DNA from: Syntrophales bacterium
GTDB lineage: Bacteria; Desulfobacterota; Syntrophia; Syntrophales; UBA2210
Direction of reading: 5' to 3'
NCBI GenBank assembly: GCA_963662405.2
Contig: CAXXKT010000001.1
Location: 2,016,001 to 2,080,000 of the forward strand
DNA: 64,000 bases
Made by a program: the position numbers and the translations under genes. The notes beneath the pieces are model-generated. The model did not search any database and was not told the DNA's origin. It saw nothing but the letters and a program-made list of their open reading frames with translations. Every line of letters begins with the position of its first letter. The stretch's first letter is position 1. Positions 26,714 to 34,166 of this stretch are shown piece after piece.

Positions 26714-26789
26714 TGGCGTCCCCACGGGGAGTCGAACCCCGGCTGCCGGCGTGAAAAGCCGGTGTCCTAGGCCACTAGACGATGGGGAC
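26714..26789 (-). tRNA. tRNA-Glu (TTC)
   Basis: GTCCCCATCGTCTAGTGGCCTAGGACACCGGCTTTTCACGCCGGCAGCCGGGGTTCGACTCCCCGTGGGGACGCCA; 76 nt, TTC anticodon, GTTCGA T-loop, encoded CCA. Confidence 0.97.
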
Positions 26790-26826
26790 GTGTTATCTGT
26801 ATGATTCCACGTGAAATGAATTGCCG

Positions 26827-26855
26827 TTTATAATCTTTATCCCTCGTTATGTCAA
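26827..26855 (-). promoter_or_regulatory. Sigma70 promoter of tRNA-Glu
   Basis: TTGACA-17 bp-TATAAA on the minus strand. Confidence 0.8.
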
Positions 26856-26868
26856 ACACAAATTATAT

Positions 26869-27738
26869 TGTTGTCAGGAGCACGTAATATGTCCGGATTT
26901 GTAGCACGTAACCTGTCCGGTTTACAATAGCCACCCCGAGGAGGTGGTTATGAGACGGACAGAGATGCTACAGGAGGTCCGGAGGATGCGGTTTGAAGAG
27001 GCGTATGGTGTATGGACGGAGAGACGATTAACCCAAGCATTCTACACTGATCGTGGGAGTCATTACTGGTACACGCCTGAGACAGGGGGAAGAGTAAGCA
27101 AAGGTCAACTCACCCAGTTTGGGCGTGCCATGAAGTATTTAGGGATAGAGATGATTGCCGCCTATTCTCCGCAAGCACGGGGAAGGAGTGAGCGGGCCTT
27201 CAGTACGCATCAAGGTCGCCTTCCCAAAGAACTGGCCCTATATGGAATCACCACAATGGACGCTGCCAATCGGTATCTGGCCGAGGTCTATCGCCCAGCG
27301 TATAACGCCGAGTTCATGCAGCCTGCCGCAGAATAAGGTAGTGCCTTTGTACCATGGGTTGGAGCGAACCTTGACGACATTTTATGCGAGCAGCATCAGA
27401 GAACCGTGACTGCCGATAACTGCTTAAGTTTTGAGGGAAAGACACTGCAAATCCCGGCCAACCGGCATAGATGCCATTACGTCAGGGTTAGGGTGCGTGT
27501 TCATCGGTACATGGACGGCTCGCTGGCCGTTTTCCATGGCCCGAGAAAGCTGGCTGATTATGATGCACAGGGGAAATTGAAAGAAAATAAGAATGGAAAG
27601 GAAAAGGCAGCGTAAGTCTGCCGCTCGCCACTTTCTCAGAAAAGCAGATCCAGGCCATACCTTCCGCTGCTTTTCTGAGAGGTAAAAAGCGGACAACTCA
27701 TTTGCTACAAAACCGGACAGTTCTATTTGTTGACAACA
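26869..27738 (+). mobile_element. Internally deleted ISNCY/IS1202-like insertion sequence with both ends retained
   Basis: Both ends start TGTTGTCA and contain two TGTCCG repeats separated by TTTGTAGCA; no target duplication visible. Confidence 0.8.
26950..27615 (+). pseudogene. ISNCY-type transposase relic
   Basis: N-terminal MRRTEMLQEVRRMRFEEAY...RLTQ is fused directly to the core AFYTDRGSHY...PQARGRSER (large in-frame deletion); in-frame TAA at 27334-27336. Confidence 0.85.
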
Positions 27739-27925
27739 CAGGGATTCAATGCGACTAAACCATTGTGCCCCAGAACTTCTATGCTCAAAAGAACTATCCG
27801 GAAAAACTACGGAGAATCAGGTATCTCGATGTGAACACCAACAAAAGACTGGTCTTTCTCATCAACAATTTTACGCTTCCGGCAAAAACTATCGCAGAGC
27901 ATCTACCGCTGCCGCTGGCCGGTGG
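27739..27925 (+). pseudogene. IS4-family transposase relic, part 5' of the intron
   Basis: GIQCD*TI...YPEKLRRIRY...LVFLINNFTLPAKTIAE..YRCRW, homologous to the IS4 at 5026-6207; has a stop and a frameshift; begins at the ISNCY right end. Confidence 0.85.
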
Positions 27926-29514
27926 GCGTGTCCAGACAAGGACGCATAATCCAGTCGGTGAAAGTCCGACCGAGGCTAAAAGACTCAGGGCCTCGTAGCT
28001 TGGAAGGTGCCGTGGCGCGAAAGCAAGACGGTAAAGCCCTTCGACAACATTCTTTGAAAGGAGGATGCGCAACGTACCAGGTTGTAACGTGCAGTGAACG
28101 TAGACGTAGCCTCGTTACACGCATTCCGGTGGCCGAGATGGTCGATGACGTGCGAAGGCAGCAAGAGATGGCGGTGATGAGTCGTATACGCTATTTCTCA
28201 CCGGCGGGGTATCAGCGGCGACATGGTATGAAGGATTATGCGGAAACTGGAGAAGCCTTCGACGCCCGTCGGAGAAACCTCGACGAGGAGTTCCGGCCTA
28301 TAACCTTGAGTGGGAAGTGGCGGGAAAGGCGTCAGGGTGGCGGATCGGGTCGTAGTACTTTTGATCTGTGTGCAGCAAAACGCACAGGGAGGGAAGGCCC
28401 CGGACCGGTAGACATTCCGTTTCGGCAAAGCGAGGCACGGGTGAGATGACAAAGACGCCCATCAGTGTGCAGGAGCTGCGCCGGCGGATTTATCGAAAGG
28501 CGAAGTCTGAGAAAGATCATCGCTTCTGGGGGATCTTCGTGCATGTGACGAAGATCGAAGTGCTTGCAGAGGCATACCGGCTGGCAAAGAGGAATGGCGG
28601 CGCTCCGGGTATCGACGGACAAAGCTTCGAAGACATCGATGCGGCGGGCGTGGAAACATTCCTCCAGACGATACGGAATGACCTCATTGCAGGCGACTAC
28701 AAGCCGCAAAGGAATCGTTTTGTGGAGATACCAAAGGGAAACGGCAAGACCCGCACGCTTCAGATACCGTGCATCAGGGATCGCGTGGTACAAGGTGCAC
28801 TGAAATGGGTGCTCGAAGCGATCTTCGAGGCGGATTTCTGCCCGAACTCCTATGGGTTTCGACCGAAACGATCGCCGCACCGTGCCCTTGCGGAAGTCCG
28901 GAGGAGCATTCTTCGGCGGATGAACATGGTGATTGATGTTGATCTATCCAAGTACTTCGACACGATCAGGCATGACGTTCTGTTGGAGAAAATAGCGCGG
29001 CGGGTCCAAGACCCGCAGGTGCTGCACCTTGTGAAGTTGATATTGAAAACAACGGGGAAAATCGGCGTTCCGCAAGGAGGGCCGTTCAGTCCCCTGGCTG
29101 CCAATATCTACCTGAGCGAGGTTGACTGGTACTTCGACGGCATACGGCGCAAGACGGCGGAAGGGGAGTTCGAGGCGGTAAACTATCATCGGTTTGCTGA
29201 TGATATCGTAATCACCGTAAGCGGCCACCATACCAAGCGAAGCTGGGCGCAAAGAGCCCTGCAACGACTCTGTGAACAGATCGAGCCCTTGGGCGTCAGT
29301 CTGAACATGGAGAAAACGAAGGTGGTAAACATGCTTGACGGCGGCGCCTTTGGATTCCTCGGGTTTGACCTCCGGCGGATATTGAACCGTGAAAGGAACC
29401 GGCATTACATTTCGGAATGTCCCAGAATAAGGTAGTGTAATTATGATTAAATGAGATTGTTTCTTGAATATTAGTATAGTATAACTCATCTCACATAAAA
29501 TAGGGGGGTGAGTT

Positions 29515-29934
29515 ATGATAAAAGGGATTTCAAATATATCAGTAATAGCTTCTTTCATCTTATATGTAATTGTGACGTTAATTGATCGGTGGGAAGCGGT
29601 TACTAAAATAGTGGGGTCAACTATGCTTACAAATATATCGTATGTATTGCTTATAATCGCAGCCATATCTGCTGGGGTTCTGTATTATTTATCAAACAGC
29701 AAGTCGCAAAAGAAACAAAAAGTGCGGCTTATTCAAGACCCAGCATCGGAGAAGTGCTATCTGGTCAGGGGTAAGACAATCTCCCATATCCCAGATCCAG
29801 AAACATTCAGGTATCTTGGAAGTTATTTTGGGTTTTCTTGGGCTAATGTTGAGACAGTTTTACAAGATGAAATTAATCGTAAATTTACAATTAGTACACC
29901 ACTGCCAAGTATTCTGAAACATATTCAAAGGTAA
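29515..29934 (+). CDS. IS1595 passenger: two-TM membrane protein with a small C-terminal domain
   Basis: Two hydrophobic segments, then KVRLIQDPASEKCYLVRGKTISHIPDPETF..LG..W; GGGGGGTG RBS; AT-rich. Confidence 0.75.
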   Translation: MIKGISNISVIASFILYVIVTLIDRWEAVTKIVGSTMLTNISYVLLIIAAISAGVLYYLSNSKSQKKQKVRLIQDPASEKCYLVRGKTISHIPDPETFRYLGSYFGFSWANVETVLQDEINRKFTISTPLPSILKHIQR

Positions 29935-29983
29935 TATTGATGCTTTTTAATCTTTGACTTTTTTTGTGGCGAGGTGTTATTGG

Positions 29984-29998
29984 TGGGTGCAACGGTAT
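29984..29998. repeat. Left arm of a perfect 15-bp inverted repeat (partner 31463-31477)
   Basis: TGGGTGCAACGGTAT; the partner ATACCGTTGCACCCA is its exact reverse complement. Confidence 0.9.
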
Positions 29999-30009
29999 GG
30001 TGTCACCGT

Positions 30010-30120
30010 TTAGTTGGGCGTTGAGCGTTTGTGCCGCTTAACCCTAACTGGACGACCGTTCACAATCCGCGTGTACGGTCTAACGGGAACAACCTTCTTG
30101 TCCTCTTTGGTTTTAGCCAA
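30010..30120 (-). CDS. Unannotated 36-aa basic peptide MAKTKEDKKVVPVRPYTRIVNGRPVRVKRHKRSTPN
   Basis: TTG start preceded by a near-perfect AAGGAGGTGA Shine-Dalgarno; below the ORF-track length cutoff. Confidence 0.6.
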   Translation of the reverse strand: MAKTKEDKKVVPVRPYTRIVNGRPVRVKRHKRSTPN

Positions 30121-30216
30121 TCAGACTCACCTCCTTCCCGGCGTAGGAAGAGGTGGTCCGGTTTCTTTGGACAGGTAACAGGGATTTATAAGTGGGAAGT
30201 TGCCCTGGGTTTGTGT

Positions 30217-31047
30217 TCATGCCGCAGCCTGTCCCTGTGGTAGTGATTCAAAATAAACCATAGCCGGTGTCTTTCTGTCAAAAGTATTGTGCCACCGTTT
30301 CTCGTTGTAGAACTGAAAATAGTCGGTAAGCCCCTTCTTCAACTCTTTCATTGAACCGTATGCCTTCAGATAGATATCTTCGTACTTGACGCTCTTCCAG
30401 AGCCGTTCGATGAAGACATTGTCCATCCATCGCCCCTGACCGTCCATGCTGATAGAGATATCATGAGAGCGAAGGACATCGATGAATGCCTGTGAGGTAA
30501 ACTGACTGCCCTGATCGGTATTGAAGATAGCCGGGCGCCCATACGTGGTGAGTGCTTCTTCAAGCGCATCCACACAAAACGCACTGTCCAACGTATTCGA
30601 CAACCGCCAGGAGAGGACCATCCGACTCGCCCAGTCCATAACGGCTACCAGATAACAGAACCCTCGTTCCATGGGAATATACGTGATATCGGCAGACCAT
30701 ACGTGGTTGGGACGGATGATATCAAGTCCCCGTAACAGATACGGATATATCGGGTGCTGGGGATGCTTTATCGATAATCTCGGCTTGATGTACAACGCCT
30801 CGATCCCCATGCGACGCATCAACCGACGTACCTTATCACGTCCGATATCATACCCTCTCTGCCACAGCTCATTGCGAATCTTCCGACTCCCATAGAAGGG
30901 ATACTGAAGATGAATCTCATCAATCTGACGCATCAGCTCCAGATCCTTCGCGCTGACCGGAACCGGAGAGTAATAAACACTCGATCGGGACAGCTCCAAG
31001 AGTTCGCATTGACGGGTTATGGGCACACTCTTTTCTCTCTTGATCAT
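30217..31047 (-). CDS. IS3-family transposase OrfB (integrase core)
   Basis: WSADITYI, FNTDQGSQF, DNVFIERLWKSVKYE DDE motifs. Confidence 0.92.
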   Translation of the reverse strand: MIKREKSVPITRQCELLELSRSSVYYSPVPVSAKDLELMRQIDEIHLQYPFYGSRKIRNELWQRGYDIGRDKVRRLMRRMGIEALYIKPRLSIKHPQHPIYPYLLRGLDIIRPNHVWSADITYIPMERGFCYLVAVMDWASRMVLSWRLSNTLDSAFCVDALEEALTTYGRPAIFNTDQGSQFTSQAFIDVLRSHDISISMDGQGRWMDNVFIERLWKSVKYEDIYLKAYGSMKELKKGLTDYFQFYNEKRWHNTFDRKTPAMVYFESLPQGQAAA

Positions 31048-31346
31048 CGCTTTGCGCTCGTTCCGTTGATGCGACCGAGCGCATGTGATAAAAAATCATT
31101 CTCCATCGATAACTGTCCGATCTTGGCGTGAAGTTCTTTTACACCCGGACCCTGGTTGTCCTTATGACCCTTGCCAAATACGTCCGATGCGTGATCCATC
31201 AACTGCTTCTTCCATGTGGTGATCTGGTTCGGGTGTACCTGATACCGCTCGGCAAGCTCAACGATCGTCTGGTCCCCTTTCAGTGCCTCCAATGCCACCT
31301 TCGCCTTGAAGGACGGTGCATGGTTCCTCCGCGGTCTCTTGCTCAT
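31044..31346 (-). CDS. IS3-family transposase OrfA (HTH)
   Basis: FKAKVALEA...ELAERYQVHPNQITTWKKQ; slippery T TTT TTA at 31089-31095, whose -1 frame is open into OrfB. Confidence 0.9.
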   Translation of the reverse strand: MSKRPRRNHAPSFKAKVALEALKGDQTIVELAERYQVHPNQITTWKKQLMDHASDVFGKGHKDNQGPGVKELHAKIGQLSMENDFLSHALGRINGTSAKR

Positions 31347-31462
31347 ATCTCTTTCCTCCTTACGTCCACTATAGAGCAACTTTCCCACTTATGCACCTGT
31401 CCAAATTTGCCCGACCAGCTCTGGAACCGCCTTGCCCTTTGCGGTATACGTCAAGTTAAAGG

Positions 31463-31477
31463 ATACCGTTGCACCCA
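31463..31477. repeat. Right arm of the perfect 15-bp inverted repeat (partner 29984-29998)
   Basis: ATACCGTTGCACCCA; begins 7 nt downstream of a minus-strand TTGACT-17 bp-TATCAG promoter candidate (31512-31484). Confidence 0.9.
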
Positions 31478-31516
31478 TTTTTTCTGATAGGGAATTTAAC
31501 CAATTAAGTCAAGAAT

Positions 31517-31545
31517 AAAAAGGCGGGGTTTTGCCCCGCCTTTTT
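31517..31545. terminator. Bidirectional rho-independent terminator after the P63C gene
   Basis: AAAAAGGCGGGG-TTTTG-CCCCGCCTTTTT. Confidence 0.88.
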
Positions 31546-32457
31546 CTAATCGTCATCTCCGAGATCAATGGTGTATTGATCTCCAAAGGCTGGGTATGCC
31601 CTTTCAACAAGTCTAACGTATTTTTTCCAATTTGTGGTAGCCCTTGCTAGCGCCAGCAGACCACCAAAAAACTCTCTTAACCTAGGCTCTCCAACTTCAT
31701 CGGTAAGAAATTGAAAGTGCTTATGCTTTCTATACCCCTTGTCTGTTTTTGAGTTTCGTTTTTCAAGTTCTCCCAATAAGTTGGGGGCCATTCTTTCGTA
31801 GATGTATTTATTGGTCCATTTTCCAATAATACTCGGTCTTTTTTGCGCATTTTCTACGCTCCATGGCCAATTATTCAACCTAAACCACTCTTTGTATAAT
31901 ACCAGTGGGAACGTAACCTCGTATTTTTTGGCCTCGTTCAAGAGGAACTGATTTAATATCTCATTTAAGACCCCCTTCATTCTAAGGTCTTGATATCCAG
32001 TGGCCTCATCAACCAGAGCCGTTATTCCAACATGAGCAAAACCTCGCATCAGCAACTCTGCTTTAAGCGCCGTTTTTTCTTGTGCTTTTGAAAGAGCGCC
32101 TTTTTCTCTTGCCTTGAGCCAAATATTACAAATATCAGAGAGAAGATGTGCTGGTAATCCCTGCGCTTCTGTACCAGATTTTGTCATGTAGGTAATTGGA
32201 TTTAGGAGTTTATCTCTTATTTCCAGTTCAATAAATGGCTCTAGTTTTTTGGCTGAAACATATTCTGGAAGATGAGCGCCTTTTTCATCGGCTCTTTTGC
32301 GTTGCCAATGTGCGCCAGCGCCTTTTTTACCTAATGCTCTCGCAACACTTCTTTCTCTTAAAACTCTAGTTTCATCTTCTAGTACTGCGCATGGTATTAC
32401 TGTATCACCTATCTTCAATTCACCTTGATGTGTTGCCTTTGGTAACCCCTTCGCCAT
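31546..32457 (-). CDS. IS1595 passenger: P63C-domain protein (phage-associated family)
   Basis: GELKIGDTVIPCAVLED.TRVL, GFAHVGITALVDEATGYQ, RPSIIGKWTNKYIYERM, KHFQFLT motifs; directly downstream of the transposase. Confidence 0.8.
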   Translation of the reverse strand: MAKGLPKATHQGELKIGDTVIPCAVLEDETRVLRERSVARALGKKGAGAHWQRKRADEKGAHLPEYVSAKKLEPFIELEIRDKLLNPITYMTKSGTEAQGLPAHLLSDICNIWLKAREKGALSKAQEKTALKAELLMRGFAHVGITALVDEATGYQDLRMKGVLNEILNQFLLNEAKKYEVTFPLVLYKEWFRLNNWPWSVENAQKRPSIIGKWTNKYIYERMAPNLLGELEKRNSKTDKGYRKHKHFQFLTDEVGEPRLREFFGGLLALARATTNWKKYVRLVERAYPAFGDQYTIDLGDDD

Positions 32458-32459
32458 TC

Positions 32460-33332
32460 CTACACCTCCAATGCTCTTTTTATTGTGAGGCCAAACAAAT
32501 CTTCATGTTCACGGTAATTGTAGCGGTAGCAGAATTCATTCACGTAGTGGGGAAGATAGCGGATACTAACTTTGTGAAATTGGCCTATGATACCACGTTT
32601 TAACAAAGCCCAAAAGGATTCAATGGTATTGGTATGCACCTCACCGTCAACGTACCACATGGTATGATTGATAACCTTGTGCGCCATTATCTGTTGAATT
32701 CCCGCATAGCCACGGTATTCATCAGTCATGAGCGTGGTGTTTTTAATGTCCACATGCTGTCTGATGAGCGATTTAAGGTCTTTTGATTTGAGCTTGTACT
32801 TATTGACCACTTTGGCAGTTACCCGCCCTTGACGCTCCACCATCCCAACCACCGGGGTCTTGGTTGTTCCCCGGCCACGGTGAATTTTGCCACCGTTTGG
32901 CCCTCCCTTGCGTGGTTTCCCTCCGATATAGGTTTCATCCACTTCAACAATCCCCGTCAATAGTTCTCTCTGTGTGCGCTCCATCATAGCTTCACGGATC
33001 TTCATGGAGATACGCCATGCTGTGTCTTTGTTGACCTGGAGATCACGGGAGAGTTGACGGGCAGAAATACCCTTCTTTGCATTGAGGATGAGAGTAATAG
33101 CAAGGAACCATTTCTGTAATTGTAAGTGGGTATGGTGAAAGATCGTGCCAACCGTCACGCTGTAAGTTGTGTTACAGTTATTACAGTGGTGACGTTTTTG
33201 TTTTGGCAGTGGTGTGGAGTTTGGAGAATTACAGTAGGTACAACGCGGTTTACCTTGCCACCGGACTGCCTCTAAATGTCTAAGGCAATCATCTTCGGTT
33301 GGAAACTTTTGGTAGATTTCTATGATATTCAT
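32460..33332 (-). CDS. IS1595-family transposase
   Basis: Zn ribbon CTYC...CNNC; VEVDETYIGG, TDEYRGY, HTNTIESFWALLKRG, YVNEFCYRYN. Confidence 0.94.
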   Translation of the reverse strand: MNIIEIYQKFPTEDDCLRHLEAVRWQGKPRCTYCNSPNSTPLPKQKRHHCNNCNTTYSVTVGTIFHHTHLQLQKWFLAITLILNAKKGISARQLSRDLQVNKDTAWRISMKIREAMMERTQRELLTGIVEVDETYIGGKPRKGGPNGGKIHRGRGTTKTPVVGMVERQGRVTAKVVNKYKLKSKDLKSLIRQHVDIKNTTLMTDEYRGYAGIQQIMAHKVINHTMWYVDGEVHTNTIESFWALLKRGIIGQFHKVSIRYLPHYVNEFCYRYNYREHEDLFGLTIKRALEV

Positions 33333-33920
33333 ATGTGCTACCTCCTGTTGGGACAAAAGATAGCACACATTAAAACTAATTGCAAGAGAATTCTTCTACC
33401 TTAAATTGGGACATTCCGTTACATTTTGCTGAGCCCAAAGAAGAACGCCCGCAAAGCCATCAAGGCAAAGATTCGGGAGATCATCCGACACGGGGGCTCC
33501 ACCCCCGCGAAAGACCTGATCAAAAGGATCAACGCCGCCTTGGCCGGATGGGTTGAATACTTCCGGGTCGGCAACTCAAGCCGGGCCTTCAGCGAAGTCC
33601 GCGACTATGGAGAAATGAAGGTCAGGACGTTGCTGACGCGGCGAAAGCGCAGACAGAAGCGAAGCGTGGGCTGGCGGCGGTGGAGTAACGAATACATCTA
33701 TGGTGTGCTGGGGCTGTTTTGGGATTGGAAAATCCACCCCCTGCAAAACGTGGAGGCATACTCGTGAAAGTGGCTGTCAGCATCACAAGGACCCATAACC
33801 CTTTCGGAGAAGACTACTGGGCGAGCTGCTTGAGGGAAAACCTCACGAGCAGTTCCTATGGGGAGGGGCTGGAAACGAGCCGGGAAAGTGCCCAGGAACC
33901 GCGCCAGTCCTTTACCCGAC

Positions 33921-34166
33921 AACTCTTCTTCAAATGGATCAAACAACATCTGAGAATCAAGTCCTTTTACGGTACCTCGGAGAATGCTATAAAAACACAG
34001 ATCTGGATTGCAATTTCCGTATATGTTCTGGTAGCTATTATCAAGAAGGATTTGAAATTTGAAAAAGAACCAATTTTACAAGTCCGTACGAATAACGATT
34101 ACATAAACCCAACCCCTACCTCTTCTAACCAGCCGAATCTATGCGGGTAACGTTGGGACAGTAGTA
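33921..34166 (+). pseudogene. IS4-family transposase relic, part 3' of the intron, with a degenerate right end
   Basis: LFFKWIKQHLRIKSFYGTSENAIKTQIWIAISVY; ends GGGACAGTAGT, resembling GGACACTAGTG of the intact IS4. Confidence 0.85.

Follow-up and report, generated by a model that had tools for sequence, protein, structure and literature searches.

A mobile 36-residue peptide gene with pairing ends in its predicted mRNA and a layout resembling type I toxin-antitoxin loci

Introduction

What function can be assigned to a 217-nt segment with perfectly inverted ends and a 36-codon reading frame that travels inside one insertion element and is itself interrupted by another? The original prediction for this locus was an mRNA closed by 5'-3' pairing together with an antisense RNA, i.e., type I toxin-antitoxin logic with a basic, non-hydrophobic peptide, and a two-operator switch and an invertible cassette were named as alternatives. 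Type I loci are defined, in the relevant passages of the T1TAdb paper, by an mRNA of 150–400 nt, a toxin of 20–60 aa and an antisense RNA of 60–200 nt, and are annotated there by Shine-Dalgarno (SD)/anti-SD and 5'-3' interactions (PMC8594479). The toxins are characterized in the sections drawn on here as mostly small hydrophobic membrane proteins, hydrophobicity being one discovery criterion (PMC8594479, PMC8167048), and both a 5'-3' interaction and 3' processing are described for hok and aapA3 in the excerpts used (PMC9841398, PMC6733600).

Results

An interrupted unit in the cargo of an IS1595 element

Positions refer to the window, i.e., the whole stretch of 64,000 nucleotides that was analyzed. 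The unit belongs to the cargo of an IS1595-family element, together with the transposase, a P63C-domain gene and a 139-aa gene. An ISXO2-like transposase, terminal inverted repeats and an 8-bp target duplication, which is typical of the IS1595 family, are all present:

29413..33418, minus strand: IS1595-family element with passenger genes, inside the reverse transcriptase gene of a group II intron
29405-29412 and 33419-33426: 8-bp target duplication of the IS1595 element, TTACATTT
32460..33332, minus strand: IS1595 (ISXO2-like) transposase (Pfam PF12762, E 4e-39; PF12760)
31546..32457, minus strand: P63C-domain passenger gene, 303 aa (PF10546, E 1e-24)
31517..31545, no strand assigned: terminator-like hairpin with T runs on both strands, between the P63C gene and the peptide unit
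29515..29934, plus strand: 139-aa passenger gene with a hydrophobic N-terminus, convergent to the peptide gene

Deletion of the IS3-family element and of one GGA joins the two flanking segments into 217 nt with inverted ends, as had been proposed, and the 15-nt arms are 100% complementary. The parts of the unit, in the order of the predicted transcript, are:

31484..31512, minus strand: predicted sigma-70 promoter, TTGACT (31512-31507)-17-TATCAG (31489-31484)
31463..31477, minus strand: 5' arm of the predicted mRNA closing stem (mean pairing probability 0.96)
31426..31463, minus strand: 5' leader with a predicted anti-SD (UCCUU) and the 5' half of a leader hairpin
30149..31422, minus strand: IS3-family element splitting the leader, with GGA duplicated at 30146-30148 and 31423-31425
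30127..30136 (30136-30127), minus strand: SD sequence AAGGAGGTGA
30010..30120, minus strand: gene of a 36-aa basic peptide with TTG start, PHROG 21154 family, predicted β-hairpin
29984..29998, minus strand: 3' arm of the predicted mRNA closing stem
29954..29983, plus strand: weak convergent promoter candidate, TTGACT-18-TATTGG with a TG extension

The minus-strand promoter, ribosome-binding site (RBS) and reading frame of the original prediction all lie where it had placed them, and for the reading frame both the position (30120-30010) and the 36 codons stand, while the start codon is corrected to TTG. The -10 box TATCAG ends 6 nt before the 5' arm, at which the predicted transcription start falls, and the 3' half of the leader hairpin is assigned to 30137-30148 in the predicted fold. 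A clean IS3-free relative, locus L084, has the IS1595 ends, transposase, P63C gene and peptide unit, with TTGACG-17-TATAAA as the counterpart promoter; it has a 12-bp stem of the same sequence. Another locus (L002) has the gene order of L084 but a different 11-bp stem. A local hairpin, AACGGT/ACCGTT, had been suggested to compete with the end-to-end stem; it is present in the window but is mismatched in L084, the closest IS3-free relative, and is not conserved. As a measure of chance, one perfect inverted repeat of at least 15 bp spanning 150–250 nt occurs in contig C3 (564 kb). Among viral contigs the exact 15-mer arm gave 64 single matches, none with both arms at one locus.

The leader is split between promoter and RBS by the IS3 element, as had been claimed. 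Twelve further near-full-length copies are found in the genome (13 near-identical copies in all), and of the 10 that have exact ends, 9, the one in the window among them, are flanked by a 3-bp duplication. As the insertion is part of a recent 13-copy burst and lies within a nest of broken elements, selection for silencing is at most a possibility. The insertion displaces promoter, 5' arm and anti-SD by 1.28 kb; in addition, base pairing of the IS3 end with the SD is predicted, by which the RBS opening energy would rise to 19.2 kcal/mol versus 12.5 kcal/mol in the joined unit, for which shuffled untranslated regions (UTRs) give 10.9 kcal/mol. On these models the peptide allele of the window is probably silenced by IS3.

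A conserved basic peptide

For comparison, 161 units including the joined unit of the window were assembled, 152 of them with full flanks, after removal of three false pattern hits (L083, L108, L121), 24 duplicates, one cut locus, four broken frames and two loci labelled human gut; the set is biased by its search patterns towards close family members, and its loci are related rather than independent. Frameshifted or truncated peptide frames are seen in 4/116 metagenome loci (L167, L175, L177, L231).

The proposed reading frame has both homologues and a coding-type pattern of conservation. A phmmer search returned 21 matches, i.e., 20 short homologues and one unrelated repeat protein, and a profile search 948 clusters; all 21 alignment members match PHROG 21154, a family of unknown function. 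Identity by codon position over 102 reading frames is 0.73/0.77/0.35, and the peptide genes of the window and L084 differ at nine synonymous and five non-synonymous codons. By this codon-position evidence the peptide gene is a real conserved gene. None of the 21 alignment members has a convincing NCBIfam match, and the window peptide belongs to no Pfam, NCBIfam or PADLOC family and matches no curated toxin or antitoxin family. A literature search of main articles listed no paper on PHROG 21154, which supplementary catalogues of small proteins may nevertheless include; the mini-gene is conserved, undescribed as far as these articles go and usually unannotated. Of longer fused forms, two proteins were considered and rejected, both looking like read-through or mis-called ends. 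In one protein (P0130), a HicB domain runs into the peptide, probably through a lost stop codon.

The window peptide is hydrophilic and very basic (GRAVY -1.26, best 15-residue hydropathy -0.19, pI 11.7), without a hydrophobic stretch, and the transmembrane helix of membrane type I toxins is absent from it. The AlphaFold2 model is all-β, a bulged two-stranded hairpin with pLDDT 84.7; a bulged two-stranded basic ribbon is also the form of the HU/IHF arm, to which the likeness is weak. A fold search with the model of a homologue ranks IHF, Hbb and HU first, with Z of 2.3–2.9 in the noise range and, at Z 2.9, an rmsd of 2.8 over 40 aligned residues; the window's model gives Z 2.4, rmsd 3.1 and 36 aligned residues, tied with TFIIA. 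All fold searches with peptide models stayed at Z under 3 or E above 1, a sequence search of the PDB gave nothing below E 0.13, and in the ESM Atlas there were unnamed clusters only, all under 0.9. Homology with HU/IHF by profile was rejected, as the hhalign score of 8.5 against 24 HU/IHF sequences was equally high in 26/40 shuffles, and the 36-aa peptide has neither the HU/IHF dimerization body nor any helical body.

Predicted end-to-end pairing of the mRNA

A strand-neutral finder detects a 5'-3' stem at p ≤0.01 in 51 of the 152 units with full flanks, with 50 distinct 5' arms, versus 2/150 for a comparable stem in control neighbouring reading frames. The remaining two thirds or so (101/152) fall short of this strict cut-off. 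Two of the 51 (L165 and L255) resembled other hairpins and were excluded from later tests. For 36 stem units in a plain MAFFT alignment, RNAalifold predicts the 5'-3' stem and nothing else, with two-sided changes at 6/6 pairs, and 87% of alignment cells pair in the stem register compared with 22–51% in slid registers; these units were preselected for the stem, and the figures describe compensation rather than test for it.

Internal mismatches of the stems comprise 20 G·U, 8 A·C and 21 others (G·U versus A·C, p 0.036). When G·U or A·C is allowed, the sense strand is favoured in 27 versus 13 stem units (p 0.038), and in 47 versus 39 of the non-stem control units. The G·U excess lends modest support to pairing at the mRNA level, and variable arms combined with compensatory and G·U changes point to RNA pairing and not to a DNA switch.

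Promoter scores are enriched at the arm, the sigma-70 score just before the 5' arm having a median of 7.9 versus 3.6 in the flanks of 49 stem units. Stem units are 188–271 nt long, transcript ends being predicted. A terminator is found in 5/46 stem units versus 48/97 others, i.e., stem and local terminator tend to exclude each other. Thirty SD-bearing units have no clear stem and are mostly not antisense units of the Bacteroidota type described below. In L138 and L150 the inverted repeat reaches 25–27 nt into matching -10 boxes on both sides, suggestive of two mirror promoters, and L169 has a perfect 31-bp repeat.

Predicted occlusion of the ribosome-binding site

Folding was evaluated in 44 units, 7 of the 51 with uncertain arm limits being left out. 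The predicted stem probability exceeds 0.8 in 39/44, and the RBS opening energy lies above that of shuffled UTRs in 37/44 (median 12.3 versus 9.7 kcal/mol; eight mononucleotide shuffles per unit). Long-leader units have the anti-SD in the leader, short-leader units often have it in the 3' UTR, and leader hairpins recur adjoining the SD. Removal of the 3' arm in silico shifts the median unpaired fraction of the SD from 0.27 to 0.34; SD access is hardly changed, which speaks against a simple hok-like model, and loss of the 3' arm does not account for the activation step. A metastable 5' hairpin like that of hok was not supported (25/43, p 0.24).

A second architecture with a predicted leader antisense gene

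Units with neither SD nor stem are mostly from Bacteroidota among the titled records, and 37/56 of them end in a terminator. In 27/48, an antisense -7 box 55–105 nt before the start codon is followed by a terminator, which predicts a leader antisense RNA of about 60–70 nt, and 19/48 also have a sense -7 box further upstream; in control reading frames of the same loci, antisense promoter plus terminator occur in 2/166 and the upstream sense promoter in 0/166. These counts are to be read with the position windows having been chosen after viewing the sequences and about nine of the 27 antisense-bearing units being close Algoriphagus-like relatives. As far as these predicted elements go, the leader layout of the Bacteroidota type is that of a cis-antisense RNA inside a toxin leader. 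In six units (L096, L097, L106, L143, L197, L225) the purine-rich loop of the antisense terminator hairpin can be paired, with matching changes, to a stretch that lies about 60 nt ahead of the start codon, and a switch in the mRNA is one possible role. For units of this type, another leader pairing was tried and dropped, as it reached p ≤0.05 in just 9/29.

In the stem class, no conserved antisense promoter was detected: good sites are present in 7/49 leaders and 8/47 3' arms without a positional peak, and the scores are slightly raised (p 0.027). The opposing promoter of the original prediction, with its 18-nt spacer and poor -10 (TG-n-TATTGG), keeps -35 and spacing in L084 but has a good site in just 8/47 long-leader units, so that the convergent antisense promoter of the window is a weakly supported candidate; a strict consensus scan passes neither this nor the sense promoter of the unit. 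The KKIV codons were considered as the site of an antisense -10, a reading that was rejected. A search within 500 nt of 43 units gave no trans-encoded antisense copy, the longest matches being 11–13 nt (three units), no IsoA-like RNA was found in the stem class, and Rfam detects no antitoxin in the loci scanned, its matches being neighbours outside the unit.

The two layouts were also sought in 13 distant loci picked by protein alone, with flanks ignored, of which the four compared with PHROG 21154 all match. The best stem begins at the predicted start site in 5/13 (L294, L295, L298, L299, L300), with compensatory changes between L294 and L295, and p ≤0.05 is reached in only 5/13 (L296, L298, L299, L300, L301). 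Four loci (L296, L297, L301, L302) have an antisense -10 at 62–77 nt before the start and a hairpin further upstream, and in L291, L292, L303 and L304 neither the stem nor the antisense layout is clear.

Discussion

Relation to known systems

The unit resembles type I loci in RNA layout and is a member of no family tested. With a GRAVY of -1.26 the peptide is hydrophilic and differs in this from most type I toxins, including Hok, AapA, Fst and TxpA. AapA is a membrane toxin, whereas the peptide here has a predicted β-hairpin, and 3' truncation in silico does not clearly open the SD. The aapA/IsoA loci of Helicobacter are alike in their mRNA of about 225 nt, peptide of about 30 aa, 5'-3' interaction and SD/anti-SD sequestration, as given in the parts of the paper used (PMC6733600). 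With hok/Sok the unit shares, according to the passages cited, a full-length mRNA closed by 5'-3' pairing plus an antisense RNA, while Hok differs as a 52-aa hydrophobic membrane toxin with the mok leader frame (PMC9841398). The peptide units have no conserved leader frame and no sequence likeness to hok. Bacteroidota-type units resemble Sok in their short leader antisense gene with its own promoter and terminator, a likeness based on the size and shape of Sok. SymE/SymR and RalR/RalA, as portrayed in the review sections drawn on, are precedents for type I toxins that act on nucleic acids and not on the membrane, and differ in that SymE and RalR are described as nucleases (PMC8167048); the 36-aa peptide is probably too small for an enzyme.

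A proposed type I-like module

We favour, with a probability of roughly 0.55, the reading of a stand-alone mini-gene with an mRNA predicted to close on itself, which would constitute the toxin half of a type I-like module. This reading of a closed mRNA is supported by the varied and compensating arms, the arm-anchored promoter, the RBS occlusion and the sister class with a predicted leader antisense gene. The predicted 217-nt unit and its 36-aa product fall in the type I size range (150–400-nt mRNA, 20–60 aa), and an SD/anti-SD and/or 5'-3' interaction is found computationally; by analogy, both layouts, i.e., the end-to-end stem and the leader antisense RNA, are hallmarks of type I toxin-antitoxin loci. 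The homologues support the main proposal, in which 5'-3' pairing closes the mRNA of a peptide that is not hydrophobic and type I logic applies; the original interpretation as a whole is supported in part.

In the mechanism that we propose, transcription would begin at the 5' arm, and the RBS would be hidden by the leader anti-SD, or by a 3'-UTR anti-SD in short-leader members. Owing to the 5'-3' stem, the full-length RNA would be long-lived yet little translated, like those of hok and aapA, and translation would be freed by RNA processing or refolding. The labile antitoxin would be the antisense RNA of about 60–70 nt made inside the leader in the Bacteroidota-type class, and in the class of the window it might be a convergent RNA that originates past the 3' arm, if there is an antitoxin at all. 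The lack of a membrane segment and the predicted bulged β-ribbon suggest that the peptide would be a cytoplasmic binder of DNA or RNA, and the likely benefit would be maintenance of the mobile element or abortive phage defence.

A more far-reaching version, which we put forward as speculative and unlikely in its entirety, is that PHROG 21154 comprises undescribed type I toxins of many phyla, i.e., free-standing nucleic-acid-binding β-ribbons (an HU/IHF arm without the body) under two interchangeable RNA locks, which would be released on loss of the element or on phage shut-off of host transcription and would stop growth. 

A family of basic β-hairpins would escape searches for type I toxins that are based on hydrophobicity. 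Should it prove toxic, the family would represent a further class of toxins acting in the cytoplasm, its fold new and its target probably so, and a single protein family would be seen to work with two RNA control designs, in lineages that do and do not initiate translation by way of an SD; if not toxic, it would still be a conserved small protein new to science, with an mRNA whose structure is likewise conserved.

Alternative explanations

The best of the competing explanations, which we consider rather unlikely, is that the peptide is a non-toxic small nucleic-acid-binding regulator or mobile-element accessory, and that the stem only stabilizes or tunes the mRNA. The negative association of stem and local terminator (5/46 versus 48/97) agrees with a stem that may mainly protect ends, an SD access nearly independent of the 3' arm also speaks for this reading, and the peptide models have a weak shape likeness to HU/IHF arms (Z 2.1–2.9); left unexplained are the RBS occlusion above controls and the dedicated leader antisense gene in 27/48 sister units. 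A parallel is hbs, a core, highly expressed gene, whereas the peptide gene is mobile and patchy (0/100 relatives) and has an occluded RBS. In the portion of the hbs paper used here, a 14-bp 5'/3'-UTR interaction around the small B. subtilis gene modulates RNase Y cleavage (PMC5737220), which implies that 5'/3' pairing can serve stability alone.

It is improbable that the structured RNA is itself functional and bound by the peptide, whether for autoregulation or as a small ribonucleoprotein. Such a complex would suit the leader hairpins that recur next to the SD and the very basic β-hairpin of the peptide, but the peptide is almost invariant at 14 positions whereas arm and leader sequences vary widely, the leader architecture is wholly replaced in Bacteroidota-type units, and the Rfam matches in the scanned loci fall outside the unit.

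That the arms act as DNA, i.e., as paired operators at two convergent promoters or as recombination sites of an invertible cassette, is disfavoured and very improbable despite the many perfect inverted repeats, the symmetry extending into the -10 boxes of L138 and L150 and the slightly raised antisense promoter scores (p 0.027), since 50 arm sequences accompany one conserved peptide, G·U outnumbers A·C, a recombinase is not a regular neighbour, the arm begins at the predicted +1, and an inverted reading frame would be antisense to the strong promoter. For inversion, orientation was checked in the contigs of runs X1–X4; they show neither an IS3-free nor an inverted joint, which carries no weight since they break at IS3. 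Among 23 sequencing runs no RNA holder was listed.

Occurrence and genomic setting

The type I-like module, if it is one, is found in IS1595 elements, prophages, defence islands and enterobacterial plasmids of many phyla. The gene is patchy, with 0/100 relatives and 2/400 genomes of the phylum carrying it; protein searches reach plasmids, phages and one E. coli chromosome, the E. coli control genome carries a peptide match and E. coli K-12 MG1655 has none. More than one copy is rare (1/160 loci with two). The 124 nearest-neighbour genes include no recurring partner, and about half belong to no family; those with names include Mrr, type I and III restriction, methylases, KwaB, E2/JAB/ThiF and AbiEi, as well as HNH, PIN, RloB, integrases and prophage genes. 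An IS1595 transposase lies near 11/160 loci, within flanks of 1.5–4 kb or less. The peptide units thus sit in defence-island, prophage, plasmid and IS settings without a fixed partner. P63C as a cognate or obligate partner was rejected, being near only 4/160 homologous loci. No Pfam or PADLOC family matches the 139-aa passenger gene, which is missing from L084 and has no tblastn match in 160 loci; a variant with about 44 differences over 313 bases is present in runs X2 and X3.

In the window, 26717-34066 is a nest of mobile elements adjoining a tRNA gene (26717-26789). It includes a short element with inverted ends and a broken reading frame (26890-27719), and its order is that of transposase-like fragments split by a group II intron (Rfam matches at 27952-28092 and 33821-33920), which is in turn split by IS1595, and this by IS3.

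Several distant loci have settings of their own. In an Acinetobacter pittii plasmid (L299, NZ_CP139358.1, 1-1579) the unit is flanked by a reverse transcriptase gene and by a DUF3800 gene in convergent orientation, and a T run follows the stem. In E. coli (L298, NZ_CP027103.1, 722-4846) the homologue faces an AAA ATPase gene in a satellite-like island with an integrase and the EFASI, C4 antisense and isrK RNAs, and in two enterobacterial plasmids (L294, L295) the unit likewise faces an AAA ATPase gene. In three prophages (L071, L072 and L290, the last being Marinitoga camini virus 1) the unit is, judged by eye, divergent from a small repressor-like gene, and the units of L071 and L290 are near recT.
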